Shown: positions 5,236-25,288, counted from the stretch's first letter. The stretch: 25,288 nucleotides of DNA from Psammoneis japonica (GCA_008632985.1 QPGO01000256.1:62001-87288); one strand, 5' to 3'. Notes: generated by a model not told the origin, from the sequence alone. Program-made: numbers and translations.

Positions 5236-5439
5236 AAATTGTACCTCTTATGTTCTTCCTTTCCTATCGGTTGCACTGCATTTGTAATTCATTTCATGGC
5301 AGTGCAAGGACGGCAACATCGACATCAAGGGACGATGAGAGTTGCAATCAGCTTGATCTTGAACGCATTTCGCATTGCAAAATTAGTTCGCACAAATCTC
5401 TCATCAGCGCACCAACCACGAGTGGCTCCATCATAATGA

Positions 5440-8200
5440 TGGCTCCACACAGTGTGTTTTGCCAGAGTCCATTTGGCAACAGCCTAAAAAAGCAGGACAT
5501 CTTCCTGAAGAAGATGTGCATTCTTGTTCAGAAAAAAATGTCCGCATTGCTAGATTGTTTTGCTTTAAAATTTTTTGCTGGTGGCATCAAAACTCACTGC
5601 TTTTGGATCTCATTAATCTTGTCTGCTTCTGTTTCTTTGAGGTTGGCACTCAATTTTGCTTGAGCAAGATCCCTCCAAGCCCTCTTTCTGGCAACAAATG
5701 TGACACCTGCCCAAGGATGTGAGAGGAGTGAGGTGCATCTGTCCTTCCCCAATGCAGCTTCAATGGCTGATCACCACCCATGCTGCTCAGGGGTTTGTCC
5801 TGCTGTGTTGGAGGTGGGTTTTGGCAGAGTGAACTTTTGCCAGGGTGGTTGACACAGCTCGTCCCCAACTTTTGTTGCAGCCTTTTTCACCAGGAGTGGC
5901 CACAAATTCACAAGCAAAGAGGTGCTGCTGTCAGCTGCTGTGGCATCACATTGATCCAAAATTGAGAAAGCAGCGTGGTTGCTCAGGGAATTCACCAGAA
6001 GCAAGACTTGGTGCCATTTTCAGACTGGTTTCATGTGCACACTTGTGCTTTGGCACAGATGCCATTTTGCCAGTTTTTAATTTGTTGCTGTGATGCACAG
6101 CAGCCAGTGTCAAGTGACAACAGTCATTTCTTTTCATTCTTGGAGAAGCATTGGATTTCTGATTGGCAACGTTCATTGGCTTGTCTGCACTGGATGTGGC
6201 TCCATCATCTGTGAGTTTGCCAATGTCACACTGGACTTTTCCAAAGCTGCAAAGTCCACCTGGTGGTGGTGACATGTCAACTCACAAGGCTAGAGTTGGT
6301 GGTGCTGGAGCAGAGGCAATTGGATCCAGGGGATGCACCTTGTTGTGTCCCATGCCATGGACAAGCAGGCATCGGCCAAGTCAACCACAGTTTGACAAGT
6401 TCCCATGCAAAAGAAGTGTGGTGAGCTCTTGGTCCAGCCCGTGGGGAGCACCAGCAGCAAGGCCACCAGTGGCTCCTCTCCCAGTCCCAAAGGGAAAGCT
6501 GTTCTGAGCTTGGCCATGTCCTCCAGGCACAACCCAACTCTGCAGAATCTGTCCAAGAGATCCAGATCTATCATGTGAATGAATCTGCTTGGAGTGTGTT
6601 GCAGAACACTCAATCCAGTGCATGGCCAAATTGCATGGCCTCCAGTGGAGCAGGCTTGTGTGTCTTGTTGTTGAGACCACAGATGCTGCCTGCAACCAAC
6701 CCCACGGTGCAGTCTCCAGTGGATGGATGGCTGCCACAATCAACAGCCACCCAAATCTTGGAGGATGCCCTGTCTTCAGCAGTGAGTTGGACTGGGGCTC
6801 CATCACAGCAAAGACTTTCCAACAGCCTGGCAGCTGGATGGGGCAGCTCACTCACAGACCATGGTGCCAAATGAACTCCCTGTGTGGATGTTTCTCAAAA
6901 TGGAGCCAGCCTGAAGATTGTGAGAGTTTGATGCCTTCAACCACTGACTCACTCCAAGGGGGCTGCTGGTGTTGGTCAGGCAAGTTGGCAGGTGAGGGCT
7001 GCAGGTGAGTCCACTGACTTGCTGCTGGCCCAACACTTCAGGTGGAGAATGCCGCCAGTGTGGCTGCTGGCACCACCACTCCATCATCTTGAGGGTTGGG
7101 CAAATGTTCATGTGCAAAGGCACTCATGGCAGTGTGCTCACATCATGGTGCTGGGTTGTGACAGGTGCCACATTGCTCACAATTTGTCAAAGCACGTGCC
7201 TTTGAGAGGACAGTGGGAGAGGCAAATCTCACATGGGGCTCCACTGATGTTTGTTTGTTGAGGTGCAAAGCACTGCCACAGAGTGAGCAAACAAATTCCA
7301 GCCTGTTCTCACAGGGCCGGGGTTTGTGACAGCAGCTCCAATCATGCCAGTGGAGAGTCAACACTGCCTTGGGGATCCTTGGTTGATTTTGGACCCTGGC
7401 CCATCAGATGGGTCAGAAGTGAGAGCACACACTTTGTCAGGTGTTGGCAAGCAGTCTGGAATGCATGGGACTCCTCCTTGCATGAGTCAGCACAAGACTC
7501 CAGTCATGATCTGGATGACCTCTCAGCAGATCCACGGCAGAACATTGCCTTTGAGAACTCTGTGTGCTGGACTGTTTGAGAAGATCCACCACCATGTCCC
7601 GCCAGTCTTCCTGGCAGAACTCATTGCCTTGAAAACCAAAGATGTGCCCATCCTAAAGGTGAGGTTGTGACCAACTGTAAGTGGGAGAGGGTGACAGATG
7701 CAAGTGACTTGACAGCCGGCACACTGCAGCTTGGCAGTGCACACATGGCCACCGCTCTCTGGATCATGCACAAGAAGCAGGTGTTCCAGAGTGCAAGTGT
7801 GGAAGCCACAAACATCCATGGCACAATGGCTGAGGAGGTTGGTGGTGCATTCTCCACCCAAATGATTGCTTTGATCATCTGCTTGTCTTGAGAGTTTTGG
7901 GAGGTGCGAGTGTGGTGCTTCAGCAGCTGTGAGGGGGACAACAGGAGCCACGCTGAAGCATGGTGTGTGTCACTTTCTTTTTCAACATTGCAACTGCTGC
8001 TGTGGTCAATGGGTGGCAACAAGTTGCAAAACAGAATGCCATGGCATTCCGATCCGTTCAAGGTTGTGGGCGGGGCCAGCCATCCATGGCTGGCCTGGGC
8101 CAGGCACGGGCCGTACCTTGCCAGACACGTCTGTCCGTCCCATCGCAGCTCCAGTTGAGGGAAATCGAAAAGTGGTTATGTCGTACGCAGATCTATGTAG
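5440..8200. mobile_element. Decayed transposon block (boundaries approximate), almost devoid of TpA and CpG
   Basis: Abrupt compositional change between two genes. By hand, 5 TA in 5641-8100 and about 15 CG in 5641-8040. Contains an RT remnant. No termini could be defined. Confidence 0.75.
6370..6860 (-). pseudogene. Frameshifted reverse transcriptase remnant of a tyrosine-recombinase (DIRS/Ngaro-like) retrotransposon
   Basis: Minus-strand fragments LPHPAARLL..L..DGAPV, GLN...APLEAMQFGHALD, IHMIDLDLLDRFCRVGL (cf. KxDLSDGFYR) and AFP.G.GEEPLVALLLVLPTGWTKSSPHFFC (cf. LPMGWxxSPPYFC), in RT order. Recognised from memory, not searched. Confidence 0.7.
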
Positions 8201-8400
8201 GGGCCCTAGGTAGAAATGCACATGAAATTGTACTAAATATCATCTATAGCATTGAGGAGATTCAAATTATATGTAAATACAATTTTGAATATAATTATTA
8301 CAGTACAAACCCCTGTACATTTCTACACAACTCCATTTCCCGCGGTTTTTGCCTCCAGAGAAAAAATGATAACCTTACTCTCTCACAACAAAGCAACACC

Positions 8401-11400
8401 ATGGACGACGACTCGAATCTTTTACCGTCCGACAACATCATGCCTACAATGAAAAGTCGCAACAACAACGACGACGACTCGAGTAGTACTATCAGTAGTA
8501 GCAGTGACTCGTCGTCGTCCTCCGAAAGCCACGACGATTCGTCCAGCAGTGACGATGATGATTCTTCCGCGAGCAGCACCAACGACGTGGAGATGAATCC
8601 TTCCATCATCCATCAAGACTCCACCAACAATACAATTCCTGCTACGGTCGCGACGACGACGACGATACAACGACCAAGTCCGGTACAAAATCCATATCGT
8701 CCTTCCAAAGTAGAACCTCATGCTTCCACCGCTACGAGTGCTCCACGTACAGATTCTACGACGAGCAACAACGGTACTGCTTTGTCATTCCAAAAGAAGA
8801 AAAAGAACGAACCCACCGCATCCGTTTTTCCAAAAACTACCGCGTCCACTTCGCTTGTTCCGCCACATCGTCAAGAACAGAAACCACAAGTACCAGCCTC
8901 GACGGACGATTTGTTATCGTGCTTTTTTCAAGACTCCACGACGACCAACAACGACAACTGCGGTAGTAGCAGCAGTGCTTTTTTTGACAAGCACAAGCCG
9001 ACAGTAGCTGCATCTGATCTTCCGATCGCTACTTCTGCTTCGCAGCCGTCTCGTAAGCAACAAGAACAACCAGCACCATCACCCGCCGTCAATAGTACTA
9101 CTACTCCAGACGATTTCCTGTCGAGACTTGAACATGAGTCGTCATCCATTCCACAAGCTCAAGTCATCAATCCTCAAGAGATTCTTGCTCGTCGATGTTG
9201 TTCCAACAAGAATACTCCAGTATCCTCCAAAAAGCAACCCGTCGTTGTGCATTTATTGACACGCCAAACCCGTCCCAACCGTCCGTGTCTTGCAGTCAAG
9301 CAAGTGTTCGCCAATAATCATCATGATGGTGCAGCACAAGACTTGTTTCCATTCCAACAGTTCAATCCCATGCAATCGGAAATGGCATACCGTGTGGTCA
9401 ATCATAATAATTCGTCTCCAAAGAACATTGTTCTTTCGGCACCGACGGGAGCAGGCAAGACGAGTATTTTTGAAATGGCCATGGCGCGCATCATCTTGTC
9501 GTCGTCGTCGAACCAACAAGAACAACAAAAAATGGTGTACATGGCTCCAAGCAAGGCACTCTGTCAAGAGCGTTTCGAGGATTGGTCTAAGCGATTTGGA
9601 ACTCGAATCCACATTGCAGTGTTGACGGGAGACACTCTTGATGAGCAAGAATCGGCCTTTGCGACATTGGCATCGGCACAATTGATTTTGACCACACCGG
9701 AAAAATGGGATTCACTATCTCGGACATGGACGCATCATCACTTTGACCTGTTTGCCGCTGTCAAATTGTTCATGTTGGATGAAGTCCACTTGTTGGGTGA
9801 TGCGAGCCGTGGAGCGTGTTTGGAATCCATCATTTGTCGAACCAAAATGATTCAAGAAATCGTTCAAGCCTGCAAGGATGTGAACGGGTGAGTACAACGC
9901 AAGTTGAGCATTTGTACCGTAGTATCGCTTTTGTATCATTTCAAAACAACTCACCGACTCGTATCTATTTTTTCTCCGTCTAATGTCATACTACAGTTTC
10001 TCCCACGACACTCTTCCACAGCCATCAATACTCCAATCGGATTTACGAATCATTGCCGTTTCGGCCACACTTCCCAATTTGGCTGATATCGCTTCCTTTC
10101 TTCAAGCCAACGAGTGTTTTTGTTTTGACGATTCCTATCGTCCCGTTCCACTCACCACGCACGTGGTGGGATTGGGAAACATAATCAAGGGCAACACCTT
10201 TCTCTTTAATAGGAGTCTCAACAAACACGTGTCGCAAATCCTACAGCGCTTTTCGAGAAACAAGCCAAGCATTTGCTTTTGTCATACCAAAAAGGAAACG
10301 GAGCAACTCGCCGTGGAGTTGGCAGCGTCAAATAAGAATCCAAAGGAACCGAGGGCTCTACACACCCTCGCAGCCAAGACCAAGGTAGTGCAGTTGCAAA
10401 AGTGCTTGATGGGGGGATTTGCCTATCATCATGCCGGACTGGATGCCGACGATCGCAAGCTTGTCGAAAACGCCTTTGTGGCGGGTCAAATCTCATGTTT
10501 GTGTGCCACATCGACACTGGCCATGGGTGTCAATTTACCAGCGCACCTTGTCATCATCAAGGGCACGAGCGCGTGGCGTGGACAAGGAGGTCATCAAGAC
10601 GTGGATCGAGCGCAATTGTTGCAAATGATGGGACGAGCCGGACGACCCGGTTTTGATACCAGTGGGACGGCCGTCATTATGACGGATCACGCCTCCAAAA
10701 GACGTTATGAACAAGTCTCAAGTGGACTGTTGTCCACCGTTGAAAGTCAATTGCCCAATTCCTTGGTGGAGGTCTTGAATGCGGAAATTTCACAGCGAGT
10801 CATTGGATCCGTCGACCAAGCCATGTCGTGGATCAAGAAAACTTTTTTCTATCGTCGAGTGAGAACCAATCCGTCTCATTATGGTATGCTTATCAGGACG
10901 CCGGCGGATTTGGATGCTCAACTGCGGGATCTCGTTGTGCAGTCGATTGAAACGTTGAGCAGGCAAGGAATTGTATCAATTACTAGCAACGAAACGGTGG
11001 TTCCAATGCACGCCTCTCACGTCATGAGTCAGCACATGGTGGACTTTGATGCCATGAAGAGGATTGAGTGTCTACCGCACGATGCGGGACAACTCGACTT
11101 GCTTCAAACCCTGACGGAAATAGAAGGACTCCACCGACCGGTCCGTCGCGACGAGAAACGGAAGCTAAACAATATCCACAAAATGATTCGGTATCAGCTT
11201 CCCGGCCCACCCAGCAAGATTCGCATTCAAACTCCGCAACAAAAGGCCTTTGTCTTGTTACAAGCCGCCATTGGACAGCACAAATTCGACGACTACACGC
11301 TCCGTCAAGAAGTATCGTCTGTGGTGGAGTATGCGACGCGCATGTTGACGGCGGCCCAAGAGTACAGCGTGGACGCAAGCAAGCACGGTCAAGTGGCGCT

Positions 11401-13472
11401 GCAGAGCTTGCGGTTGCGACGGTCGCTGGCGACCAGCCTTTGGGGTGCTGGCAAGGAGGGGTTGGTTCTCAATCAGCTCTTGGGCATTGGGCTCAACACG
11501 GCAAAGAAGCTGAAATTCAACAAGATTCTGTCCTTTCAGGATGTCTTGCATACTTCGGCCGAGGATATTGAAAAGGCGGCGGCTCGATCTGGTGGATTCG
11601 GAAAGGACCTGAGGGTGGTGGTATCCAAGATTCTCAAGAGTACTCTTACCTTGACGGCCAAGGTGGAGAACGATAAAGATTCGAATCATTCTAAAGAGAT
11701 TGTTTGTACGTTTGCCAAAAACACCAGCTACGACGCCTTGATGGAGAGTTCCGCGTCGACTGGTAAGGACGCCACTGCCAATACCCGTCTCGTTACGTAC
11801 ACTCTTGCAGTTTACACGGATCGGCCAGGCGGATGTCTCCTGTTTCAGTCCAACATTGCTGGTCCCGGCGAGTACCGAATTCCGTGCCCGCCCGAATTCG
11901 GAAAAGTGTTTGTTCACGCCGTGTCTAATCTTGTTGGGCTTGACGAGTATCTTGAACTCCAGGGAAACGCCGAGGTGGTGAAATCCAAGTTCACCGCAAA
12001 CCCACTAAAATCAAAGGAATCGAAAAAACCGCGCAATACTTCCAATGCGTCCATCGACACGAAGAAAATGGCTCCCTCTCATTCTCAGTTTCGAGACTGC
12101 GTCAAGAACGTTGGAGACTTTCGTATCAAGAGCAAGCCCCCAGTGAAAAGCAAGAGATCATTGTTTCAGGGAAGCAAAAAGACTCCTGCAAAGGGAACCC
12201 ACGCAAATGGCAATAGTAATTTGACAGTCACCCCGTCACCGCCGCCACTGAGTATGGCGGCGGGTAGCGCCAACACTACCGTCGAGCGTGCTCCGCAGCC
12301 AATGGCTACAAGTACCAGAACATTCAATAACAACAGCAACTGGAGCCCACCTCGAAATCGCACACCACCGAGAAGCGCTGCTAGGTCAACATCGTCGGAA
12401 GCCAAGCCGTGGAAGAGGGCGAAAACCGAACAAAAGAATCTTCAGAAGCGAGCATTTCGGACCAAGAGCGAGAATCCTTTTGCGGAGTATTCGTTCGACC
12501 CGTGAGTAGAATTTCTCGCTTTTTGATCTGCACGAACTTTTGTTGAACTCGTTGTGCTCACTCTCTTTCGCTTCATCTAATACATTCAGGAATGACATTG
12601 AAGGCACCCTATTTCAGGCTGCCACAAAAAGCCAAGGGGAGCATATTCAACAAGAGGCACCCTCCGTGATCCCTCCCGGCACGTTTGAATCATTGCGGGC
12701 CGCTCACCAAACTCCGCAGTACCGACACTCGAGCGCCCCCTATGGGGCATCGGGAAGGGTGTTTAATCGCGCATTCAACACCGGACACCGCAAGAGAAAG
12801 GGAACAGGCCCGCGAATTCCAGAGACGGAGCTACTTCATATGAAAGCCGCGGAGCAAGAGAGACATGCACGAGAGCAACTTCAAAATAGCAGCCGGCGCC
12901 ATGACTCTCAGCAGTCAGGCATCTTTTTAAAGATGAGGAACGCCAGGCCAACTGTCTTTCCTCAAAACCATCCGTTCAATGACAATGTCTGCGGTGGTTC
13001 TAACATGATGGAAGAGTCGCTTGCTTCACCACCTCGATGCAATGACAGCTTGGGAGGGTCTATGGTTGCTGATGAGTGGGGTCCGCCGGAGCCAAGCTAT
13101 CGGAACGCACAAGGAAACTTTCAAGACGAAAGAGGTGCAATGCCCTGGTATGGATATTCTCTTGGTGCAGAGCCACCCAAGTACGGAGGAAACATAGCTA
13201 ACGAGCCCGTATACACTGGCGATTCCTCGACATGGGATACTTTCGAGACCCAAGGGGATACATTCGTCGGCCAAGAAAACCGACCAATCGGTTCGCAAGA
13301 TGAATGGCACCAGTCTCAACCAGTGGTGTACAGAGTACCAGTAGAAACTTCCAGGACCCCAAGAGGCGTAGTAGAGCCCACCCCAAGGTCCAGCTTTATT
13401 GAGCAGCAACCGAATTCACAACGTTCAAAGAGAAATTTGGAGGAAGAGAAGCTGCTCGAAGCTTTTTTCTAG
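8401..13472 (+). CDS. MER3: Meiotic DExH-box Ski2-like DNA helicase MER3/HFM1 with Sec63 domain; exons 8401-9887, 9997-12501, 12590-13472 (1624 aa)
   Basis: Motifs FNPMQSE, SAPTGAGKT, MAPSKALCQER, TTPEKWDSLSR, LDEVHLLGDASRGACLE, IIAVSATLPN, YHHAGL, TSTLAMGVNLPAHLVIIKGT, QMMGRAGRPGFDTSG, then a Sec63 region. Introns 9888-9996 and 12502-12589 (both GTGAGT...CTCAC...CAG, phase 2) join three ORFs in frame, 4875 nt total. The start codon is the likeliest choice, not proven. Confidence 0.9.
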
Positions 13473-13558
13473 GGAGAAAAGACAGCTCAGGCCGCGTGTT
13501 GGCTTCGGTCTCTAAGTTTCTTTCTCTGTAACTATATAACAACAGCATTCTCCAAAAA

Positions 13559-16500
13559 CTATCGCCACAACTTGATTGCCCCATCATATGAGCAACTGAG
13601 TAAGGTTCTTATGGGATACGAGATCATTTTCAAATCTGTAATAGAGTCATGATGTTTCGTTTCAGGTTTGGAAAGACCCCGCTGAAGCTTTCGCGGAATT
13701 TTTGAACTCTCAATTTCGCCGACACCCAAAGGCTCATTTTCCCTGCAAGTAATGAGTCGGCCGTAGTCAAAGTCGACACGAGCAAAGGTAGGCCTCTGTT
13801 GCCCCCCACTAATCGTATAACATTTCGTCGGAGACAAGAAATCAAAGTAACGAATATGGCAGTCGCTGCCTCCTGTTATGAGGTAGTCCCTCTTTTCGTG
13901 GCCACCAACGCTACCAACCATTCCCGTCATGCGACCTTTCGAGGCCGTGGATGCAAAATCAAAGCTATCAGGTAGACGGATATGCTTTCTCATCGATCGA
14001 CTGTGGTAATTCGTTGTGATTGGCACCTCGCGAAGAGACGGCAATGTTGTTGCTGGTGGATCCATGTATCCAGTACCAGGCTCAATGACGCGGAAGCATT
14101 GGCAACAGCTACTGCTTGCAATATCAAACATGGAGCACTCGTTGGGGCCGCATGCTGCAAACATGTACGGGCGTGCGTCGTTACTCGAGACGTTGTGCCC
14201 ATGAGGTAGTGCTGAATAGGATGTCGCAAGACGGTTCACAGGAGAAGCGCTGCTATGCTGCCACAGCTTTACCATTTGCTGAAACCGTATATCCCACAAG
14301 GCAAGGAACCCACGACTTGTACCAGTCACCATCCAATGACGATCGTTACCAAGTGACATGCTCGTCAGATACCCAATGTCAGGCCGGTGTTTCAAGATAA
14401 AGGGCTCTCTTGCACTTCTCAAGTCCCATGAATGAACCAAACCTTTTTGAGTGGCAAAGGATAGGATGGACGCAGAAGGGGTATTGAAATGAGAAACAGC
14501 AAGTACTTCTCCTTCCACTGGATCGATTTTGCGAATAAGACTACTTCCTGAAACCCTTGACATTTCGTACGTGTCACTGGTTCCTGCAGCAAACTTTTCC
14601 GCGATTTTCTTACTCGTTGTCACTGCGTCAACACGCCACACGTGCACAGACCCGTCACTGGCACCAGAAACTACAGAATGACTATTCTCGACAATTGCAA
14701 CATCATTGATTCGGGGATAGGCATGGCCTGCATCCTCAGTGTGACCAGAATAAGTCAGACTGCTCTCGAGAATCCCGACAGAGTCTTCTGCTTGTCGAAG
14801 CTCCCAAACACGACATGTACCATCGTGACTTGCTGATACAAAAAAGCCTTGATCTTTTGTAACCGCCAGTCGAGATACAGGAGCAGAATGGCCACTTTTC
14901 AAAGAGCTACTGGCTAAAAGGGCATCAGATTTTGGTCTCCATTCTCTAGATGACGTATCCTTGGGAGAAGCGGACGATGGGCGCTGAGATGTCACGGCTT
15001 GTCGACTACGTTCGCGTAGCACACCAAGGTTTGGAGGGAGTGGCGGCACGCTAAGGCCTTTCAACTTCGATGTGAGTAACATGGTATCGACATCGGACGG
15101 GTCCAATCGCGCTTCTGCGCCCCATTCACCAGTCGACGCAGAATCGATAACTTTCGATTCCGATGATGTCAGGATTTGCTTGGCATCGGCTTCTGTCAGA
15201 CGCTTGTCATCCGGAAACACGTCACCCTCTGAAGTCATGGCAGCGTCTAGCAATGCTTTGTCCTCTTCCGCTGGAGTTGACAGAGGCATGAGGGAGAGAC
15301 CATAGACCTTGCTCAGTGTAGCAACAGAGCGAATTCCGCATGTCTCGGAGCAATACGACCCATTGCTCTGAGAAAAGTCTCTCAAATCACTATACCACAT
15401 TGGCAAGTGAGCCGATCTCTGACCAGTGTATCTTTGGCTTGGAAACTTGACCTGTTGAGCGAGTTTCGGGTTACCTTCGATTGCATTTGCAAGATTACTC
15501 CGGAGAAATTCCTTCCGAGAAAGCGGGTCAAATACAAGTTTTCGGCTTCTCGACAACATGCGCAGATAGCTCGTGACTTGGCTAGAGTTTGATCCCACAA
15601 GAGGCTGAGAGGGAGAATCAATGCCTGCGGTATGCATATGGCTTGGTCCGTTGCCTCCATCGTTACCATCCTGTACGTCAATACCAATTGATGTCCACTT
15701 GCCCGAAGTCGGCGAGAAGGATTGCAGCTTGTCCAAGTTGTCCAGCTCCTCCCTAAGCCTTTCTTTTGTCCAAGGAGGATATAGGCAAGCTCTTAGTCCT
15801 TCTGAAGTGGTCAAATGGCGTTCCGTCGGTTCAAACCTTAGATATGGTCGAAGAAGAGGCACCAAGAACACATCTCGATCTGGAAATCCCATGGCCACAG
15901 AAGCTGCATTGACCAACTTGATGGCCCCGTTGCGAACATAAGCTGACGGGTACAACAAGAGTGGTGAGTACCTTTCAAACAAACCAATGTTCTTCCCGTT
16001 GCTTCTCGAACGACCCGTGGCATCAGCTTCTGAAGAGTACGCCGGCGTCCCGACAAGAGCGGAACGTGAAAGCAATCCCAATTCAACCAACGCAGCCAAG
16101 CATAGCAGTGCCTGACTCATGACTAGGTCTTCACCGTCCACGAGTGCAGTCTCCAAACAGGGCAATACAAAGTGCTCTGTGGCAGCCCTACCGACAATGA
16201 AACAGAGCGAGGGTAAATGTTCAAAGAGCGACGCCCGCAATTGCCAATCTCGTCGATCATTAAGAAAGGCAAGAATCTGAGGCAAAATAAATGCAATGAC
16301 TCCGTCACGACCAAAGAAGTTACACAACCGCGGCAAATCATGGAGCAAGCCCAACTTGGGTGGAGACGATTGCTCCGACTGATCGGTAGCAATATGCATG
16401 ACCCACCGCGACACCATTTCATGCAGACCGGCAAGTTCGACATTGTACGTGTTGCTAATGAGCGTCTTGTCACCGGCCGATGATGTAATCTTTTGGTTTT

Positions 16501-18757
16501 CCAAAGGAGTCGACGACCCTGACGATGCCTTTGCATTGTCCAAGCCTATCGAACCGCTGTCGTGCGGACTCTTTTTGCTACTGCTATTGTCATCTCCCAA
16601 GAGATTTGCAACATCATCGGCAAAAACGTTATCCTTTGTTTCGTCCTTTGCTTCCTTGGTTTCATGGGCATGACTTGCACCACCACCACCCACGGCTTCG
16701 TAAAGTCGTACAGCATGTGATATATCCAAGAATCTCAAAGACGTTTCCGCCAAGAGCGGAATGCATTCGGAAAATGCAATTCTCACGACAAGCGATTGAT
16801 CCGTCAAGAGATGAGCCACACGTTTAAATATGTATTGCGGAAACACTTTTGAATCCGACGGCGCAAAGCTCTCGATCCGTGCCAAGGTACTCGTGAGTAC
16901 ACGAATGGCACCGGCTCTCACAAGGGCGTCTTGATCGTGCAACAAATCAATCGTGGTGGGTACAATGCGTTGCAGACGAGCATCGTCGGTACAAGCATGG
17001 CGGCCAAGCCGCTGCAAGAGTTGCAATCCAACAAATTTGCTAGACGGCCGTTGGACGTGACGAATCGTGACGAGAATCAATTGCAAAAAGAGCAAAAGGG
17101 AACTCTTGCAAGATGGAGACCGGGACTCGTTCTTGTCAGTCACGTCGGTAGGAGGCTTTGATTCATCATGATGCTCTGGCTTCAACCGGCCTGCCGCTTC
17201 AGGTTCCGGTGCGACGACATTATCAATGGTTAGAGAATCTAGCTTGTCAAGCAATTCTTGGGTTTCCTTCATCAACTTGTCCAGGTCATTCTCTTGTGGA
17301 TGGTTATCTTTGTCCCCGCCTACATCTTGTTGTTGTTGTAGATCCGTCTCCTTGATATCTTCGTCGTCGTCCTCATTCTTGTCCAGCTTGATAATGGTTT
17401 CACCCAAGATTTGATCAAAATAGGCTTGTCCAGTCTCATCATGAATACCAAGACAGGCAAACAATACTCTATCATAATAGGAGGCCGCCATGGCAATACG
17501 AGCATCGGGTGTAATGACTGTTTGGTTCTTGGGAGCACAAATCACCTTTTGAAACAGCTCGGTAAACAAATCAAATGTCTCCGGCATGACGGGGGACCAA
17601 GAAGTGGATGGCTGTGACGTTGTTATGTTTTTTGCGTCCGAGGTTGAAGTACTCCTGTCAGCGTCTCTTCCACTACTACTCCCTTGTGGTTGTTGTTGTT
17701 CGAGTCGTTGCAAATACTCCTTTGCCGACAGTCGCTCTTTGGGATTTAAATGCAACATGTGTCGACAGGCAGCACGGGTCGAAGACGATTCAATCTTGTG
17801 TAGATTGGATAAAAGTGCCGCCGTCAGGGTGCCCTGTCGACGATATTCCATCAAATCCCCCAAATCCATGGCACGTTCACCGTTCAAAAAGAGTTCCATC
17901 ATGCAACAACCGACACTAAAAATGTCACTGGCCGGTGTCAATCGTGTCAAGCGTGTGTTGTTTGTTTCTGTGTTTTGAGCCGTAATAGTAGATGTTCTCG
18001 AGGGAGTATAGAAACGTTCCGGTGCCAAATAACAACGCTTTTCAGCACGCGGTGACGTTGTTTTTGTTGTGGAAGAATGTTGTTGTAATTGTTCTTGAAA
18101 ATAATACAAATACATGGACGGATCATCATCGGGTAAGGCCGTCACGTTGTGTTTATAGGATGAAACATCCAACAAAATTACATGATTCCAACTCGTCAAA
18201 CCGATATTTTCCGTTGTGAGGAAACCGTGCACCACGTTTTTATCATGCAAGTGTTGTACCGCACGCAACAATTGTCGCAAGACCCATTGTTTTTCCACAA
18301 CGTGCAAAAAGGGCCGACACGCCAATCGATCCGACAGTGTCGTGTACACGTGACTTCGCATGACATAAATCGGAATCATGGTGGCATTCGGATTGGCAGC
18401 AGCCGTAGACATAGGAGTCCCCACTTTCCAATACAAAAAAGGTGCCACATTTACCGAAGCATTATCTCGTAGTACTTGTTTGATGCGACGCAATTCAGCC
18501 TCTTGTTGTTCCAACGATTCCTCCAATTGCTTTGCAGGTACATACATGGACTTGACGACTACCAAATTACCAAGGGATGAATTCTTGAGCAAAAAGGTTT
18601 TGGACATGCGGCCCGAACCGGGAACCAAACGTTGCTCCACACTGTAGTTGGGAAAATTCCCAGCCAAGTCCAACTCCTCGTCTTGTATTGAGATTGTTGT
18701 TGTTGCACTTGTTGTTGTACTTGGAGGAGTGGATGACGAGGAGTGATGAGCGCCCAT
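13559..18757 (-). CDS. VPS15: Phosphoinositide 3-kinase regulatory subunit 4 / Vps15 (kinase-like domain, HEAT repeats, WD40), 1732 aa, apparently intronless
   Basis: MG start (MGAHHS) matching the myristoylated Vps15 N-terminus. Motifs TLSDRLACRPFL..VEKQW, LPDDDPS, RCYLAPERF, DIFSVGC, RLQRIVP, FPQYIF, AFLNDRRDWQLR, and WD40 motifs FVSASHDGTCRVWE and SCSYDGAIKLWR. Confidence 0.95.
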   Translation of the reverse strand: MGAHHSSSSTPPSTTTSATTTISIQDEELDLAGNFPNYSVEQRLVPGSGRMSKTFLLKNSSLGNLVVVKSMYVPAKQLEESLEQQEAELRRIKQVLRDNASVNVAPFLYWKVGTPMSTAAANPNATMIPIYVMRSHVYTTLSDRLACRPFLHVVEKQWVLRQLLRAVQHLHDKNVVHGFLTTENIGLTSWNHVILLDVSSYKHNVTALPDDDPSMYLYYFQEQLQQHSSTTKTTSPRAEKRCYLAPERFYTPSRTSTITAQNTETNNTRLTRLTPASDIFSVGCCMMELFLNGERAMDLGDLMEYRRQGTLTAALLSNLHKIESSSTRAACRHMLHLNPKERLSAKEYLQRLEQQQPQGSSSGRDADRSTSTSDAKNITTSQPSTSWSPVMPETFDLFTELFQKVICAPKNQTVITPDARIAMAASYYDRVLFACLGIHDETGQAYFDQILGETIIKLDKNEDDDEDIKETDLQQQQDVGGDKDNHPQENDLDKLMKETQELLDKLDSLTIDNVVAPEPEAAGRLKPEHHDESKPPTDVTDKNESRSPSCKSSLLLFLQLILVTIRHVQRPSSKFVGLQLLQRLGRHACTDDARLQRIVPTTIDLLHDQDALVRAGAIRVLTSTLARIESFAPSDSKVFPQYIFKRVAHLLTDQSLVVRIAFSECIPLLAETSLRFLDISHAVRLYEAVGGGGASHAHETKEAKDETKDNVFADDVANLLGDDNSSSKKSPHDSGSIGLDNAKASSGSSTPLENQKITSSAGDKTLISNTYNVELAGLHEMVSRWVMHIATDQSEQSSPPKLGLLHDLPRLCNFFGRDGVIAFILPQILAFLNDRRDWQLRASLFEHLPSLCFIVGRAATEHFVLPCLETALVDGEDLVMSQALLCLAALVELGLLSRSALVGTPAYSSEADATGRSRSNGKNIGLFERYSPLLLYPSAYVRNGAIKLVNAASVAMGFPDRDVFLVPLLRPYLRFEPTERHLTTSEGLRACLYPPWTKERLREELDNLDKLQSFSPTSGKWTSIGIDVQDGNDGGNGPSHMHTAGIDSPSQPLVGSNSSQVTSYLRMLSRSRKLVFDPLSRKEFLRSNLANAIEGNPKLAQQVKFPSQRYTGQRSAHLPMWYSDLRDFSQSNGSYCSETCGIRSVATLSKVYGLSLMPLSTPAEEDKALLDAAMTSEGDVFPDDKRLTEADAKQILTSSESKVIDSASTGEWGAEARLDPSDVDTMLLTSKLKGLSVPPLPPNLGVLRERSRQAVTSQRPSSASPKDTSSREWRPKSDALLASSSLKSGHSAPVSRLAVTKDQGFFVSASHDGTCRVWELRQAEDSVGILESSLTYSGHTEDAGHAYPRINDVAIVENSHSVVSGASDGSVHVWRVDAVTTSKKIAEKFAAGTSDTYEMSRVSGSSLIRKIDPVEGEVLAVSHFNTPSASILSFATQKGLVHSWDLRSAREPFILKHRPDIGYLTSMSLGNDRHWMVTGTSRGFLALWDIRFQQMVKLWQHSSASPVNRLATSYSALPHGHNVSSNDARPYMFAACGPNECSMFDIASSSCCQCFRVIEPGTGYMDPPATTLPSLREVPITTNYHSRSMRKHIRLPDSFDFASTASKGRMTGMVGSVGGHEKRDYLITGGSDCHIRYFDFLSPTKCYTISGGQQRPTFARVDFDYGRLITCRENEPLGVGEIESSKIPRKLQRGLSKPETKHHDSITDLKMISYPIRTLLSCSYDGAIKLWR

Positions 18758-18952
18758 GACTGAACAAAGAAAAGAGTTATAGAGTAGCAATATAAAGTGG
18801 CTGTGTTGTAAGGATGATAAAAAATCAGAGCATTCAGAGTGATAAAGTAACTTGGCTGTCCGATTCAATCTTGTGATGTGTTTGTCAGTATGATTGGGTG
18901 ATTGGTGCCCACAGATATTGAGCCCCAAAAGACCGTTTTGCACCGAAGATAA

Positions 18953-19899
18953 CCCTTTGACACATGGCCACTGTTATTTGGGGCCTGGCCCCAAATAATG
19001 CGCCATTCTGATTGGTCTAAATAAATAAATCCACAAGTAAATTTTGGCGGGAAAATAACGGCTAAATCGCTTGGGGCCTGGCCCCAAATGCACAAGGTTC
19101 GAGTGACGAATGTGCTCGAGGCATTGAAAGATTTTCATGGCTGTTTACGTCGATTGTTGCACTGGTGTGTTGAGCGATCACACGCGAAAACCCAGACGAG
19201 AAAACGAGATTTTTTGCCTCCGCAACAGCATCCATAGATGGCGACTCGACCGCCATTTCGGTGGCCGGAGAAAATGGCGGGAAAGCTGCAACCGTCATGC
19301 AGGAATCTCAGATTTCAGAATTGTTTGTTGGTGGAAACAAAAAATGAAAAGGAGTGGTTGAAAGTGCCGCATGGCAACAAACATCAAACCACCACAAGTT
19401 TGATTCTTGTTCTTGCTTGTTGACACAAAGTCAAATCTTACGGTGCCAAAATGATCAACAATCAAAATGAAAGTTGCGATGTAGATAAACCAAGCATGGT
19501 TGTTTTGATCGTGTTGTTTTCATTCATCTCAGACAACAATGAGGTGCTCGCCGTGTCGCGAACCTGACATTGTCGACTTCCCCCTGATTTGCCATGTTGT
19601 TTGCTCATCTGTGATTGACACACCGTTGATTTGGATGGAAAACAACCATGTGGCTAAAGTGACAACCAAACAGACACACATGAACACACAGAGTTCATGC
19701 TGTGAAGACCTGTCAGAACAGAGAGCAAATGGGGTCTCGCGTCCTGAAACCGCCATCATCGAGTCGTCGTGGTTCCCGTTTGCAAGAGCAGGCATCGTGC
19801 TCAAATCATGGTCGTCAAGATTCTGTCAGACAAAATGTCTGACCGTTAAATTCTCATTTGGGGCCTGGCCCCAAACAAGCAATTTCATGTGTCAAAGGG
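18953..19899. mobile_element. Non-autonomous piggyBac-like DNA transposon (947 bp), 195 bp upstream of the VPS15 start
   Basis: Perfect 14-bp TIR CCCTTTGACACATG (18953-18966) / CATGTGTCAAAGGG (19886-19899). At both ends a 7-bp spacer is followed by the palindrome TTTGGGGCC(T/A)GGCCCCAAA, with a third copy at ~19071-19088. Flanks are ATAA (18949-18952) and ACAA (19900-19903), consistent with a mutated 4-bp TSD. CCC...GGG ends suggest piggyBac. No transposase recognised. Confidence 0.8.
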
Positions 19900-19903
19900 A
19901 CAA

Positions 19904-20562
19904 CAGACGGAAAATCTGAAAAATGCACGCACACACGAAAAGTGGGGGATGAGCACGCAGGCAACTCTTTACAAACTGTGCAGGAAATGTGCCAGGGTTT
20001 GTGTAGAATTTGACAATGACACAATTCCATTTTGATGGCGACAAGTGGAAACACACATGGTTTTCCAGTGCAAATTTGACAGCGACGCCACAGACGGAAT
20101 CATTGTCAACACACCAAAAACTGCATCAGGTTTTCGATCACAGGGAATTCCTTGTTTGGCGCTTGACTTCCCCAGACAAGGAAAGACAAGGAACCAAGAA
20201 AAGGAAAAATTAATTGGTCATTCAATGTGCAGTTGCAACCATCATGATCCTTTCATCCAGCTAGAAGTTGATTTGTCCAGAGCCTCTGGCTGCCAAAACA
20301 CCTCTTTTTGTGCAATGCACTCAATGGGTGAGGCAGACACCACTGGGGGGCACTTTCTCAAGGACAAAAAGATGTGCTTCCACGGGGTTTCTTCAAGTGC
20401 AATCTGCTTGAAGCAAGCCCACAAAAGCTCAAGTTGGTGTGGCAAATCTGGCGCACATTGTGCAACAAAACAAAAGAGGAAAGCCTCTTTGTTTCCTTCA
20501 TTCAACAAGCCAATGAGGGGGGAATCAAGATGTCCCGTGAGCATGAGAGCGGGGTTTTGGGT
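19904..20562. other. TpA-depleted decayed sequence of unidentified origin, probably another repeat fragment
   Basis: Same compositional signature as the flanking transposons; no protein motif recognised. Confidence 0.4.
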
Positions 20563-20841
20563 TGACAGAAATTGAAGGGCAAATGGCAAGAATTCAAACA
20601 ACAACTCCTCACTGCTGTCTAAATGGCAGATGAGTCTCCACTCAGAGACCGTCACAGGAGCCAAAAGACGTGCAAGTCGGCACAATCGGGCTGCTGTTGT
20701 CATTCTTGTGAGCTGTGTGGCTCAAAAGCAAACTGCATCGCATGCACACGTGTGGAGCTGAAGAGCACAAAAAACTGTGTGCGGTGAACTAAATGGCATG
20801 CGACATTTTGCGCACACCCAAATCTTGTTCAAATCCTGTCA
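20563..20841 (-). repeat. 3' LTR (279 bp) of the copia remnant, preceded by a polypurine tract
   Basis: Minus strand reads ACTGGGGAG (PPT, 20842-20850), then TGACAGGATTTGAA...TTCAATTTCTGTCA, with TG...CA ends and short terminal inverted repeats. Lies just downstream of the RNase H remnant. Confidence 0.9.
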
Positions 20842-21241
20842 CTCCCCAGTTTGCTTGAGGAGTCACAGAAACAGATTCGAAGTCGGATTGGTTGAAAGCC
20901 TTGGGATCGAAGTTCCAAAACATTAGAGGATGAAGGAGGTTCCAGATTTGGGAGCAACCCCAATGCTTGCTGAGGATGTCAGCCGGGTTGCGGGAGCCTT
21001 CGATGGAATGAAACCTGAGGAAACCGGAGGCAATCGCCTCACGCACATGATGGAATGAGAGGGTGGTGTGTCACTTGTGCAACTTGGAGTGCGGGATGGC
21101 AGCACTGTCCACAACCGACTCTTGTTGTTTTCAGGAAGATCATCATTTGCAGGCCACGGAGAGACACTGCTCCGGAACAGACAATGTCGACGGGCCCGTC
21201 TGTGAGGTGTCCATCAGCAACAAGCCTTGCTTTGTGCCGTC

Positions 21242-21638
21242 GACGCGTTCCAGATGCAGGTGGGAATCCGTGTGACATTGGGCCCGTAGACTTCTGCATG
21301 CGGAGCTCCGCAGTAAAATCACACGGCAATTAAAATGTCAATGATCGCCAACAGAAAATGAGGCAATTTTGCGAATGCACAAACTCACACATGATTGAAG
21401 TGCATCATTTTTTACTTGGCCAGTTGCATTCTTCAGACATTGAAGAATGTAACTGGCGCACTGTTGTTTCTATAAATTTGTCATATAAAACGTCTGGGGC
21501 TTCGCAAAACAGCGAGTCTGGACAATTTTTTTTAAATGTCACACGTAGAAATCTACGTGCAAAACACACGACGGATGACAAAAATTGTTGTTGTCACACG
21601 TCAGCACTGCGAGCTCCCACCTGGGGCTGGAACGCGTC
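21242..21638. mobile_element. 397-bp MITE nested in the copia RT, 4-bp TSD
   Basis: TIRs GACGCGTTCCAGatgCAGGTGGGA / TCCCACCTGgggCTGGAACGCGTC. TSD CGTC at 21238-21241 and 21639-21642. Excision restores DVKHDG-R-HKARLVADG. Confidence 0.9.
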
Positions 21639-21943
21639 CGTCCATCATGTTTGACATCACAGATGAGATGCACCCGGATCTTCTTGTGTCCTGATGGAGC
21701 ACTGGAATCATTGTGGTGTCTGCAGTTGTGGAAGACCTTGCACTCATCAAGCTGTCAGACAACGCCACAGAGCCCGCATCATCAAAGCCATTGTGTCTCC
21801 CCACTTGCGGTTGCCATTGCACTCATCAAGGGCCATGGCATGCTTGCAGTCCCGTGGCACTTCATGCCCGTGCTTGCATCATGGCACAGTGCAAAAGGAG
21901 CGCAACTTGGCTTGGTTGGCCATGCGGAACAGCTTCTTCTGAT

Positions 21944-22222
21944 TGACAGGATTTGAATGGGATTTGGGTGCACGCGAAATGTCGCACGCTGTTTAGTTTG
22001 CCGCACACAGTTTTGTGTGCTCTTTAGTTCCGCGCGTGCGCGCACGATGTAGTTTGCTTTTGAGCCACAAGGCTCACAAGAACAATGACAGCAGCCCAAT
22101 TGTGCCGACTTGCATGTCTTTTGGCTCCTGCAACAGTCTCTGAGCAGAGACTCATCTGCCATTTAGACAGCAGCAAGGAGTCATTGTTTGAATTCTTGCC
22201 ATTTGCCATTCAATTTCTGTCG
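21944..22222 (+). mobile_element. Solo LTR (279 bp) of the same copia family, inserted in opposite orientation into the pol region
   Basis: Colinear, gap-free match to the reverse complement of 20563-20841. TSD CTGAT at 21939-21943 and 22223-22227. Removal restores GWRRFCKMTLH-QKKLFRMANQAKLRS. The terminal CA reads CG. Confidence 0.93.
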
Positions 22223-23680
22223 CTGATGAAGGGTCATCTTGCAAAAGCGTCTCCATCCTTTGGTTTCTAGAAGGCCGTGCTCACGCACGCAGACAGCACA
22301 GGTGATGGGGTTGTCCTTGGCAATGACGGCAAGGGGTTCGGACGTGATCTCCCCATTCTCCCATTCAAGCATGACGTTGCAGCTTGAGCCTTTCCAAGAG
22401 GGATCATGGGGTTGCAATGGTCCCTCGTGCAACACGATGCATCGGAACTTCCAGAGGGCAGTGTCCTCGTCTTCTTGCTCAATGTGGTGCATGATGTCAT
22501 TGCAGGCCAGGACTTCCTCACATTCGTCATTGTTGATGGAGCAAATGAACTTGACCAGTTCAGGATTGTCTCCGATTTTCCAGTCATGGTCCTCAACGGC
22601 TTTGACGATGCGGGCTCTGTGGCGTTGTCCATCCTCTTGTGGCTTCATGAGGAAGGTGCGTTCTGTGATGTCCTTGGGGTCAAAGACCGGCATTTTGGGC
22701 ATCCTGATTGCCTCCCCATCTGGTGAATCTGGCAAATCCTGGGAGTCGTGGCGGGATTTAATGACAGGTTCAGCAGATTTCTTGTCAGGAGGATCAAGAT
22801 GCAGGTTTGGAGCAGAGATGGATCACGGGCGGGGCGCACGTTGGAACGGCAGGGAATCTTCTGAGTGTCGTCAGAAAGAATCTTGACCATCATTTGGTGG
22901 CCAATGTGCTTGGCAATGCCAACGTCAGTGTCATTGGGCTTCGCGTTGGAGCGGGCAGAAGGTGCAAATCCGGGAGGTTTCTCACCTGAACGGGCAGAAG
23001 GAGGCCGTTCAGGTGCCAGGAAACGTTGCAAGTCACCGGGTGGCAGGGGCTTGCGCCTGGTGAGATGAGCCAGAATGGGGTTGGCATCGGCTGCATCGCC
23101 ACCTACGAGCACAAATGAAAGTAGAATCAAGCATGAAAAGTGAAAATTGTGAGATTGAATTTTGCTCTGTGATTTTTGGTTTCTCCGAATGAGCTCTCAA
23201 TGGCCTAAAGCTTCTGCACTGCTTCTACAGACAAAAGGCCTTTCGGAGAATATATTCGTGACAACAGATTGTCCGGATGCGATTGCTGTTGACACGTAAG
23301 ATGTCAACATCGTCAATCGATCGTATTTGCAATTTTCGACATCCGATCAACTCTGTGTGGCATCGTTCTGTCCTTTGTACGCATCCACGACTGTGGTACG
23401 ATTGACATATATAATATATAATTCCAAATATGTATATAACAGTCGCATGCTGCATTCGCCTCCCTAATTGCGCATTAGAGTTATTCGTTAAGTGGAATAA
23501 TTTGACTGACATTGACACTGTCAATAATGTCTCCACGTTAACTGTATTGTGCCATTAGCAATGACTGTTGTTGTTTTATATTATAGGCCAGCATAGGGCC
23601 GGCCGTTTCACTTTCCAAATGTCTTTCGAGAGTGTCATGGTTTGTCTCACGCTCTATGTGTATATGTAACGGTGCATGTG

Positions 23681-23694
23681 TATATATATATATA
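23681..23694. repeat. (TA)7 microsatellite within a TA-rich island
   Basis: tatatatatatata. Confidence 0.7.
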
Positions 23695-24341
23695 AATATA
23701 CTGTAGTATTGCGTCGAGTGGACAGAAGGAGCAATTGTCCTGCTGTTCTTTCATGGTATCGATTGTACATAGCATTCTGCCCAGCACTCGATGTACAGTG
23801 CGCTCCTAATTGGCGTTCACTTACTTTACTTACTTGTGGATTTCGCCATATTGCTCTATTGCACTACCACGTTTCATAAGTAGTAATTAACGATGGTCAA
23901 GGATATGACCATTTCGTCTTGACATTCAATCCTGTGATGGTTGTGAATTCCATCATGGATTTTTTGTACTTTAACCATCTGTCAGTTGGATTTTAATCGT
24001 CATTTGGACGTTTCTTTTTGACATGCCGGTGTCATTTTGTCTTTCCGAAGGCACTGCTTTCGTGCACTAAGTGGATAATGTCCATTTTTCTTTTCTTTTT
24101 CTGAATCTTTGGCACCCCTGTGGCAGGGGAGCTGTGTGTGTGTGCGTGGTTGTGCGCGCACGGCTTCGCCGTGCGTTGAGTTTTAATGTCAACATCCGCA
24201 CGAATGTGTGTGTTCCACAAGTAAAAATTCCCATTCCACAGCTCCCCTGAAACTCCAACCACCAAAAACCGAGGGGTCGGAAGCGCACTTTCGGGAGCTC
24301 TTTTTCTCCGCACAAAAAACACGCGTTTCATCGACTCGACC

Positions 24342-25168
24342 ATGATGATGCCTCGTAGTTCTTCCCCATCGCCTTCCCAGGACGCCGATCCTGCTGACAC
24401 CGTTGCTGACAACACTGACACAACAGGTGATGTCATCATTCCGGTTCTCGTGGGTGTGACACGCACAAAATAAGATGCTACAAACTCACACTGTTGTTTG
24501 CACGCTCCACCGCCTCCCACAGATGCTGTCACGAATTCCAACACCGCACCTGCGTTTCGGGCCCCTGGCATGCCCGATGCTGTCACTCCTGCCCTTGCTG
24601 CCGCAGGTGCTGTTGATGCTGTCATTGCATTTTGCCAATGACGTCCACAATGAAATGCTGACAACTCACACTTCTTTCATTCTCGCCCCACCGCCTCCCA
24701 CAGATGCCATCACGAATTCCAACGCCGCACCTGCGTTTCGGCCCCCCAGCATGCCCGACACTGTCGCTCCTGCCCTTGCTGCCGCAGGTGCTGTTGATGC
24801 TGTCATTGTCTTTTGCCAATGACGTCCACAACGAAATGCTTGTAACTCACACTTCTTTCATTCACGCCCCACCGCCTCCCACAGATGCCATCACGAATTC
24901 CAACGCCGCACCTGCGTTTCGGCCCCCCAGCATGCCCGACACTGTCAACCCCACCCTTGCTGCCGCAGGTGCTGTTGACACTGTCATTGTTTTTGCTTTG
25001 GAAGGAGCACAATGGATGACGGATGACGGCGGACCAGGAAACCCACGCAACCACGGCCTGCTGATGGACGACACATCAATGGACATGAATGGTGCCTCTT
25101 GGTCAGCTCTCGAGTGCAGTCCAATCTTCAGAATGTGCAGGCACATTGTGCAGCTCTCTGTAAATTAG
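24342..25168 (+). pseudogene. Candidate spliced gene or pseudogene built from duplicated 84-nt exons; exons 24342-24426, 24523-24606, 24704-24787, 24885-(24968 or 25168)
   Basis: Three 96-97 nt GT...CTCAC...pyrimidine-rich...CAG segments, all phase 1. Splicing gives MMMPRSSSPSPSQDADPADTVADNTDTT then three copies of DA(V/I)TNSN(T/A)APAFR(A/P)P(G/S)MPD(A/T)VxP(A/T)LAAA. Lies in TpA-depleted DNA, so probably repeat-borne or dead. Confidence 0.5.
24470..24996 (+). repeat. Tandem repeat, 181-bp period, about 2.9 copies
   Basis: CCGCCTCCCACAG ends at 24522, 24703 and 24884. GCCGCAG|GT junctions at 24606, 24787 and 24968. Confidence 0.92.
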
Positions 25169-25288
25169 AAACCTGACAACAAGCAGGCATGCTTTCACAG
25201 TTTTTTAGTTTCAAGTTGGAGAGGTCAGCGAATTGGCATTTGTTTGCAGGCGACTTGGCAAGGTTTCAAATGGTGCATGTGACTTGGC

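Follow-up and report, generated by a model that had tools for sequence, protein, structure and literature searches.

Loss of TpA dinucleotides from transposon-derived DNA in the diatom Psammoneis japonica: a candidate process of directional TpA to TpG/CpA mutation

The window analysed here is the whole 25,288-nt stretch GCA_008632985.1 QPGO01000256.1:62001-87288 of Psammoneis japonica, read on one strand from 5' to 3'. A compact, intron-poor set of eukaryotic genes shares it with blocks of DNA, some recognisable as retroelement remnants, in which the TA dinucleotide is almost missing. The best named relatives of its HFM1/MER3-type helicase were diatoms (Cylindrotheca fusiformis, 48% identity; Fistulifera solaris, 45%), and for this reason the window is considered diatom DNA. 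Three almost TA-less stretches were visible in sliding windows, at 5500-8000, 19250-23200 and 24000-25288. The number of TAs and the observed-to-expected ratio (o/e) of TA and CG were as follows in four segments of these blocks (B1 to B4) and in the host genes.

5600-8000, B1: 6 TA (o/e 0.04), CG o/e 0.09
19250-21000, B2: 12 TA (o/e 0.10), CG o/e 0.56
21650-23200, B3: 8 TA (o/e 0.09), CG o/e 0.61
24050-25288, B4: 11 TA (o/e 0.16), CG o/e 0.77
Host genes: 427 TA (o/e 0.49), CG o/e 1.02

Altogether the blocks (6942 bp) held 37 TAs where approximately 419 would be expected at an o/e of 1, a deficit that excludes chance. An earlier note, made from the sequence alone, had proposed a repeat-restricted hypermutation from TpA to TpG/CpA, and its hand counts were exact for B1 when repeated by program: 5641-8100 contained exactly five TAs (positions 6078, 6291, 6569, 7654 and 7678), and the run 6570-7653 (about 1.08 kb) was TA-free. 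The copia-coding segments (1341 bp as delimited by tblastn) contained three TAs (o/e 0.04), again as noted, with a CG o/e of 0.55. When the ten strand-symmetric dinucleotides were compared in the blocks, only TA and CG were low and only CA/TG was high (1.58-1.86), AA/TT (1.07-1.35) and AG/CT (0.80-1.14) being unremarkable. Taken separately, TG and CA had o/e values of 1.4-2.0 in the blocks against 1.21 in the genes, and both products were enriched in every block. TA was mildly scarce throughout the window. Fungal repeat-induced point mutation (RIP) changes C to T, mostly at CpA, thereby creating TpA, and requires duplicated sequence. A RIP-type change would raise TpA and lower CpA/TpG, the opposite of the pattern in the blocks.

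As TAA and TAG were lost, long frames are open in all six phases. The blocks (5000-8200 and 19200-25288) displayed many overlapping open reading frames (ORFs) of 60-215 amino acids in all six frames, TGA being the sole remaining stop. No usable match was obtained in Pfam scans of 30 block ORFs at E 0.01 and of 30 ORFs at E 1, owing to the combination of spurious open frames and badly damaged proteins. TA-depleted regions are a trap for gene callers and confuse the annotation of both genes and transposons. The features distinguished in and around the blocks were the following.

5430..8110, no strand: Block 1, TpA- and CpG-depleted intergenic domain from the FG-GAP gene to HFM1/MER3, at single-copy depth
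6323..6858, minus strand: divergent reverse transcriptase (RT) remnant within B1, about 180 residues (phmmer, tblastn)
19240..20563, no strand: Block 2, TA-depleted DNA, class not assigned; 9 TAs, o/e 0.09, CG o/e 0.57
20564..20844, plus strand: inverted-repeat arm 1, 281 nt
20906..21239, minus strand: copia polyprotein remnant, C-terminal pieces (about amino acids 1350-1385 and 1765-1836 of P0002), with internal deletion (tblastn)
21240..21637, no strand: nested insert, about 400 bp, within the copia remnant, partly TA-depleted, breaking the copia reading frame
21638..21941, minus strand: copia remnant, about amino acids 1258-1350 (tblastn)
21941..22221, minus strand: inverted-repeat arm 2, inserted in the copia remnant, 281 nt, TA o/e 0.22
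22211..23082, minus strand: copia remnant, about amino acids 552-589 and 1033-1262 (tblastn)
23200..24050, no strand: spared TA-rich block with (TA)n runs, high-copy, without CpG decay; 66 TAs, o/e 0.90, CG o/e 1.11
24050..25288, no strand: Block 4, TA-depleted repeat, class not assigned, with a 181-bp tandem array at 24501-25045

A homologue search with 22181-22822 (minus strand) returned 24 copia-type polyproteins, down to E 4e-66, and 17 of them carried PF07727. tblastn aligned five collinear copia pieces to the minus strand between 23082 and 20906, with a large internal deletion. Judged by these homologues, the segment 20906-23082 is a remnant of a Ty1/copia long terminal repeat (LTR) retrotransposon; no RT core and no LTRs remain in this copy. 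In B1, a word-based search with the ORF 6290-6739 (minus strand) found no homologue, and an exhaustive phmmer search was needed to reveal a divergent RT (285 hits, best E 2e-13); these hits matched RVT_1 only weakly, short of the Pfam cut-off. The label DIRS-like previously given to an element here is thereby reduced to a divergent RT in B1, and the label piggyBac-like found no match in Pfam (30 ORFs, E up to 1) or in the PDB. A PDB search with the B2 ORF 19529-19825 (minus strand) gave spurious matches to designed propellers only. When B1, B2, B4, the 400-bp insert, the inverted-repeat arm and the spared block were compared by blastn and tblastx with 79 metagenome loci carrying related copia elements, the matches were confined to the upstream piece of copia and to low-complexity sequence. 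A foreign origin is thus established for the copia and the RT element only.

Sequencing contigs from two runs of one sample were aligned to the window at a likeness of at least 80%, and 40 of the 688 difference rows and 15 of the 86 joints were listed. Among the joints listed, those from 21236/21238 to 21638-21648 marked the 400-bp insert as absent from other copies, and those from 21914/21941 to 22303/22314 did the same for arm 2.

The direction of the change could be read from the tyrosine codons, as tyrosine is encoded by TAY codons only. Conserved columns were defined as those in which at least 70% of the copia homologues agreed. All nine conserved tyrosines of the copia remnant were replaced, eight by Cys (TGY) and one by His (CAY), so that every change was a transition and none led to Phe, Ser, Asn or Asp. 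The pieces contributed as follows: TGT and TGC in 20906..21239, three Cys and one His among the four tyrosines of 21638..21941, and TGC at the three of 22211..23082. Phe (9/9), Asn (8/8), Trp (7/7) and Pro (15/15) were kept. Among the other conserved NA codons, the second-position A had become G in only 2 of 83 cases (His 0/16, Gln 0/7, Asn 0/8, Lys 2/21, Asp 0/18, Glu 0/13). Set against nine tyrosines out of nine, this shows that the change was specific to TA and not a general drift from A to G. Seven of 21 conserved arginines now read His, Cys, Gln or stop, as expected from CpG decay. The RT remnant of B1 followed the same lines. Where 138 of 146 homologue rows have a conserved tyrosine, the window has TGC (Cys), two conserved arginines are now TGT and TGA, and a second conserved tyrosine reads GGC in a frame that is less certain.

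Seven related loci passed through the identical pipeline kept Tyr at 34-55 conserved columns, with 0-3 replaced by Cys or His. The TA o/e lay between 0.49 and 1.01 in 79 of 79 related copia loci from metagenomes, a scan that favours intact elements and is uninformative on how common the process is elsewhere. The tyrosine test, the relatives and the dinucleotide spectrum support the view that the TA loss results from directional TpA to TpG/CpA mutation rather than from inherited composition, CpG decay or RIP, as the earlier note had argued. Seven copia loci (L041, L042, L066, L033, L063, L006 and L027) combined a CG o/e of 0.06-0.27 with a TG+CA of 1.39-1.60 and a TA of 0.49-0.78; their hosts display methyl-CpG decay without a TpA process.

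Copies lying within the window offered a second view of the change. The exact 281-bp arms differed by 40 mismatches, 22 of which formed 11 CA/TG pairs, and in the extended inverted-repeat alignment (20540-20860 versus 21925-22245) 39 of 55 mismatches were transitions. CA/TG differences between copies are ambiguous in principle, as an ancestral CG decayed on opposite strands looks identical. Six CG/CG pairs were kept between the arms and nine were half-decayed, from which a CpG ancestry predicts about 1.7 CA/TG pairs. The observed 11 therefore derive mostly from ancestral TA that was hit on different strands once the copies had parted. Neighbouring copies of the B4 tandem array showed 3, 6 and 2 such pairs, in agreement with the CA/TG pairs between copies described in the earlier note. 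Of the repeat sites listed, seven differ from the window in every other contig, and one of them (25129) is CA here and TA elsewhere.

The bases flanking the TAs (R, purine; Y, pyrimidine) revealed a context preference. The 37 survivors comprised 20 YTAR, 17 one-sided (RTAR or YTAY) and no RTAY, against 50, 245 and 159, respectively, among 454 gene TAs (Fisher p = 2e-9). The pooled TAs of the copia relatives were 17% YTAR, 50% one-sided and 33% RTAY. In terms of trinucleotides, 18 survivors were TAA and 14 TAG, so that a 3' purine protects. The simplest reading would be that the A is most mutable in 5'-TAY-3'; either strand of RTAY would then be well targeted, and neither strand of YTAR. Taking the relatives as ancestral baseline, a two-rate model gave a TAY:TAR hazard ratio of 3.6; taking the host genes, it gave 29. 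All six conserved tyrosine codons preceded by a pyrimidine had become Cys, and the three preceded by a purine had become two Cys and one His. The flanking bases thus explain the 8:1 ratio of Cys to His, and a pure sense-strand (transcript) bias was set aside as unneeded. That both strands were hit, as previously claimed, is supported by these flanks and by the CA/TG pairs between the arms.

The blocks were also sharply delimited with respect to the genes of the window, which are the following.

875-2173, plus strand: prolyl-hydroxylase-like protein with ShK domains
2710-5235, plus strand: FG-GAP repeat protein
7960-9891 and 9983-12505, plus strand: HFM1/MER3-type helicase, two ORFs
13559-18943, minus strand: VPS15

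In B1 the CG-poor domain (5420-8050) and the TA-poor domain (5290/5620-8114, about 2.6 kb) had common edges. The depletion of B1 ended about 300 bp before the likely start of HFM1, and B2 began about 300 bp upstream of VPS15, edges that correspond to the fading near promoters described in the earlier note, and the genes are spared. Across eight segments the TA o/e followed the CG o/e (Spearman rho 0.95, p = 4e-4), a correlation that is suggestive and is weakened by the fact that the eight segments are neighbours and not independent samples. The 400-bp insert, younger than its host copia since it is nested in it, was less depleted than the host pieces, with a TA o/e of 0.40 and a CG o/e of 1.09 against 0.04 and 0.55; its 12 TAs were one RTAY, nine one-sided and two YTAR. 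This pattern would fit two clocks running in place in one silenced, methylated chromatin, and the suggested link with heterochromatin is in keeping with the co-variation of TA loss and CpG decay. In B2-B4 the TA loss was near complete and the CpG loss was 25-45%, which fits a TpA clock several-fold faster than CpG decay. We infer the silence of the blocks from their CpG decay.

As concerns the helicase, the two ORFs of this meiotic crossover protein are separated by approximately 90 nt, probably one short intron. About 140 nt at the 5' end of the upstream ORF fall within the TA-free block, where the frame stays open only through the absence of TAA and TAG, and the true start is probably near 8400.

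Copy number was estimated from contig depth. B1 had a depth of 58-74, to be compared with 57-112 in the unique flanks. The summed depth reached 30,000-94,000 in the copia zone, which belongs to a high-copy family, and about 11,800 in the TA-rich block (23309-23975). B1, now single-copy, is saturated, and a block of high copy number has escaped. Judged by present copy number, the process therefore does not appear to be confined to repeats as RIP is, and this part of the initial proposal was not supported. The spared insertion of that proposal is indeed TA-rich (66 TAs in 23200-24050, 31 of them RTAY), and its description as young was unsupported. Intact (TA)n and TATA-rich microsatellites lie at 23408-23437 and 23681-23707, 200-500 bp from fully TA-depleted DNA. 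The contigs reproduced 5300-12466 with 0 and 3 differences and differed from the window at 79 places in 12437-16816, which indicates that they are not simply the assembly itself.

The closest known system is described in the chlorarachniophyte Bigelowiella natans (Mettrop et al., bioRxiv 10.64898/2026.01.13.699255). According to the accessible text of this preprint, two silent integrated viral regions received 231 of 302 new mutations in mutation-accumulation lines; with a single exception these were A to G or T to C, and all of those lay on TpA. The rate was about 6e-7 per site per generation, in some lines only, and one of the target regions was single-copy and transcriptionally silent. TpA-depleted coding sequences (CDS) were enriched for RT and DDE domains, and the authors proposed an ADAT2-like DNA adenine deaminase, without a biochemical test (bioRxiv 10.64898/2026.01.13.699255). 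As far as can be judged from that text, the two cases agree in the near-exclusive A:T to G:C transitions, in the restriction to TpA with TpG or CpA as the product depending on the strand, in the targeting of foreign or silent DNA with host genes spared and a single-copy target possible, and in the long-term footprint, which in B. natans is TpA depletion with CpA/TpG enrichment, found in clusters and in RT- or DDE-bearing CDS. They differ in the host, a rhizarian in one case and a diatom in the other; in the nature of the evidence, as events were seen de novo in B. natans and the diatom window displays the end state only; and in depth, the TA o/e being 0.04-0.16 here as compared to the Rho of 0.45 given in the same text for the nucleocytoplasmic large DNA virus (NCLDV) region of B. 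natans. That text contained no mention of diatoms, of the neighbouring-base context, of a 3'-neighbour rule or of a link with CpG decay. By analogy, the diatom window appears to record the same kind of process as the de novo hypermutation of B. natans. The belief expressed in the earlier note that the process was undescribed is corrected by the preprint. For diatoms, term searches of the literature, which included the searchable text of a 2025 diatom transposon preprint and of Maumus et al. 2009, found no description of it. New here are the TAY preference, the link with CpG decay and the independence from present copy number.

Like RIP, the process is a local, near-saturating hypermutation by transitions that disables mobile DNA permanently and spares adjacent genes. 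Unlike RIP, it destroys TpA and creates CpA/TpG, and it has affected B1, now single-copy, while sparing a high-copy block. Methyl-CpG decay is also present in the blocks (CG o/e 0.09-0.77), in the same domain, and also yields TG/CA; however, it cannot remove TA, and B2-B4 have lost TA more fully than CG. The earlier note had already pointed out that neither RIP nor CpG decay removes TA. With the editing by ADAR and ADAT enzymes the process shares the A to G outcome and the requirement for a 5' T, which agrees with the 5' U/T neighbour preference of ADARs cited in the B. natans preprint (bioRxiv 10.64898/2026.01.13.699255). It is unlike ADAR editing in that the survivors are TAA and TAG, the 3' purine being protective, and in that both strands were hit. 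ADARs act on double-stranded RNA, prefer a 3' G and are not known outside animals.

We propose, with moderate confidence, that a TpA to TpG/CpA process acts in place on silenced, CpG-methylated transposon DNA, with a preference for TAY and with adenine deamination as its most likely chemistry. In this model, transposon-derived DNA in silenced, CpG-methylated chromatin would be the target of transitions from TpA to TpG or CpA, each being a change from A to G at 5'-TA on either strand, preferentially at 5'-TAY-3'. Adenine would most likely be deaminated enzymatically to hypoxanthine in DNA and then read as G at replication. Over time almost all TAs would be erased, every tyrosine codon would become Cys or His, and TAA and TAG would disappear. 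The elements would be permanently disabled, and the genes and promoters a few hundred bases away would stay untouched. The sequence itself establishes the direction of change, its TpA specificity, the involvement of both strands, the context preference, the sparing of genes and the co-variation with CpG decay; that the change takes place on the chromosome, is guided by chromatin state and is made by a deaminase belongs to the interpretation. A candidate enzyme, that is, a deaminase with the HxE-PCxxC motif, is not encoded within the window, in line with the earlier remark that no responsible enzyme was visible there.

Several points weigh against this proposal. The diatom evidence is an end state read from the sequence. 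The high-copy block rich in RTAY and (TA)n was left untouched. The CA/TG pairs between the arms fell in RTAY in 2 of 11 cases and in one-sided contexts in 9 of 11, which makes TAY a quantitative preference; a strict rule was considered and dropped for this reason. On the sense strand of copia, TG (1.78) exceeded CA (1.44), somewhat above the 60% share given by a symmetric rule, an excess which may leave room for a transcript-linked component. Among the 8967 aligned contigs, 1332 were at least 99% and 2351 were 95-99% like the TA-poor copia copy. One episode of mutation followed by copying, and not change at this locus, may therefore account for the TA-poor state of copia. The contig runs come from one sample, perhaps the assembly's own source, and their platform is unrecorded. 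Finally, amphioxus BjADAT2, the one ADAT2 shown to edit DNA, deaminates adenine in a GAA context and not in TAY, according to the part of that report available (PMC10354150).

Of the other explanations, the one that survives best is editing before integration. Retroelement RNA or cDNA would be edited at UA/TA by an RNA or single-stranded DNA adenosine deaminase and then integrated, in the manner of APOBEC3 or ADAR. Both classifiable elements, copia and the RT element, are reverse-transcribing, no DNA transposon was verified among the depleted blocks by Pfam or PDB, and the sense-strand excess of TG, the 8:1 ratio of Cys to His and the many contigs closely resembling the TA-poor copy could all be accommodated. 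We nevertheless consider it unlikely. Both strands were hit, including sites reachable only from the antisense strand, and the 8:1 ratio is what a symmetric TAY preference predicts. The TA loss tracks a CpG decay that occurs in place, the younger nested insert is less depleted, and the TA-poor domain of B1, about 2.6 kb long, matches the CpG-poor domain in its edges. In B. natans, moreover, the signature arose de novo in a chromosomal region described in the accessible text as single-copy and transcriptionally silent. The earlier conclusion that genomic DNA rather than RNA or cDNA was the target is thus likely to hold, and its argument from DNA transposons is unsupported, like the piggyBac-like label on which it depends.

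A second possibility is one ancient episode of the same chemistry, after which a TA-poor non-autonomous variant was amplified by trans-mobilisation or segmental duplication, no process targeting the locus now. The depth of the copia zone relative to unique DNA (30,000-94,000 versus 57-112) and the 3683 of 8967 contigs that are at least 95% alike point in this direction. These likeness classes are made unreliable by the short, fragmented repeat contigs, and copies mutated independently come to resemble one another under a near-saturating process with a fixed context preference. CA/TG pairs, 11 of them between the arms and others between the tandem copies, place mutation after duplication; the single-copy B1 and the unrelated B2 and B4 share the signature, and the depletion is graded across segments. 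A single episode appears distinctly improbable on these grounds.

An origin in which thymine is the damaged base seems to us remote to a similar degree. An oxidation of the TET/JBP type, or another modification of T in RTA, for example to 5-formyluracil mispairing with G, would give T to C, and A to G at TAY and T to C at RTA are indistinguishable by sequence in strand-symmetric data. Thymine hypermodification with a dinucleotide preference exists in some protists. A literature search combining 5-hydroxymethyluracil, dinoflagellates and TpA found no paper, and this origin has no support in the window or in the papers cited. In the accessible text, the B. natans authors favour adenine deamination, again without a biochemical test (bioRxiv 10.64898/2026.01.13.699255).

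Error-prone patch repair of the polymerase eta (Pol eta) type, triggered by T:G mismatches at methylated CpG and mutating nearby A:T pairs, had been named as a candidate in the earlier note and would account for the co-variation of TA loss with CpG decay and for the common domain edges. The WA to WG motif of Pol eta predicts changes from AA to AG as well. In the blocks AA/TT was not depleted (1.07-1.35), and A had become G in 2 of 29 conserved AA codons (Lys, Asn) as compared to 8 of 9 TA codons. The nine tyrosine changes were all transitions, where polymerase errors would include transversions, and the near-complete TA loss of B2-B4 contrasts with their CpG loss of 25-45%. This candidate therefore has very little to recommend it.

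Inherited composition or selection, in which the elements were always TA-poor or TA was selected against, for example by UA-cleaving RNases, could draw on the mild scarcity of TA everywhere in the window (0.49 in genes), and is still harder to sustain: it is refuted for the copia remnant by the nine replaced tyrosines in a dead, deleted and interrupted element, the 79 relatives have a TA o/e of 0.49-1.01, and the survivors have a flanking context opposite to that seen in the genes. Least credible of all is an artefact of sequencing or assembly, such as systematic miscalls at modified bases, to which the unrecorded platform and the possible identity of the sample with the assembly's source lend some room, since the contigs match 5300-12466 with 0 and 3 differences yet differ at 79 places in 12437-16816, and the signal is sharply localised and consistent from codon to codon.

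Returning to the proposed in-place mutation of TpA, RIP and methyl-CpG decay are the classical routes by which parasitic DNA is mutated, and both act on cytosine. The adenine-side, TpA-specific counterpart is so far represented by the 2026 preprint and one chlorarachniophyte. A saturated footprint in diatom transposon relics suggests that the process is widespread or ancient in the supergroup of stramenopiles, alveolates and Rhizaria (SAR). We put forward tentatively, and with clearly less confidence than the local process itself, that it may constitute a programmed adenine-directed defence ('A-RIP'). Such a defence would prefer TAY, would be ancient and common to at least two SAR lineages (diatoms and chlorarachniophytes), would work in place on silenced, methylated chromatin whatever the copy number and several-fold faster than methyl-CpG decay, and would be run by a candidate natural DNA adenine deaminase. 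If true, A-RIP would erase tyrosine codons and TA-rich signals from mobile DNA, and a natural enzyme deaminating adenine in double-stranded chromosomal DNA would be of interest to base-editing research. From the window it is predicted that a TAY preference should show, also among the mutations of B. natans, that the process should co-localise with CpG methylation and that it should be independent of copy number. As diatoms can be transformed and are open to knock-out, the mechanism is testable.

A few other observations were made in the window. In the interval between the helicase and VPS15, a 310-amino-acid ORF (12540-13472, plus strand) matched no Pfam family at E up to 1. The contigs showed 79 differences and 15 gaps in 12437-16816 and only 0-3 in 5300-12466; the change near 12.4 kb could mark a boundary between haplotypes or strains, or else a patch in which heterozygosity was lost. 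An open-ended plus-strand ORF at the left edge of the window contains a 75-nt direct repeat (1-75 and 202-276, 87% identical).

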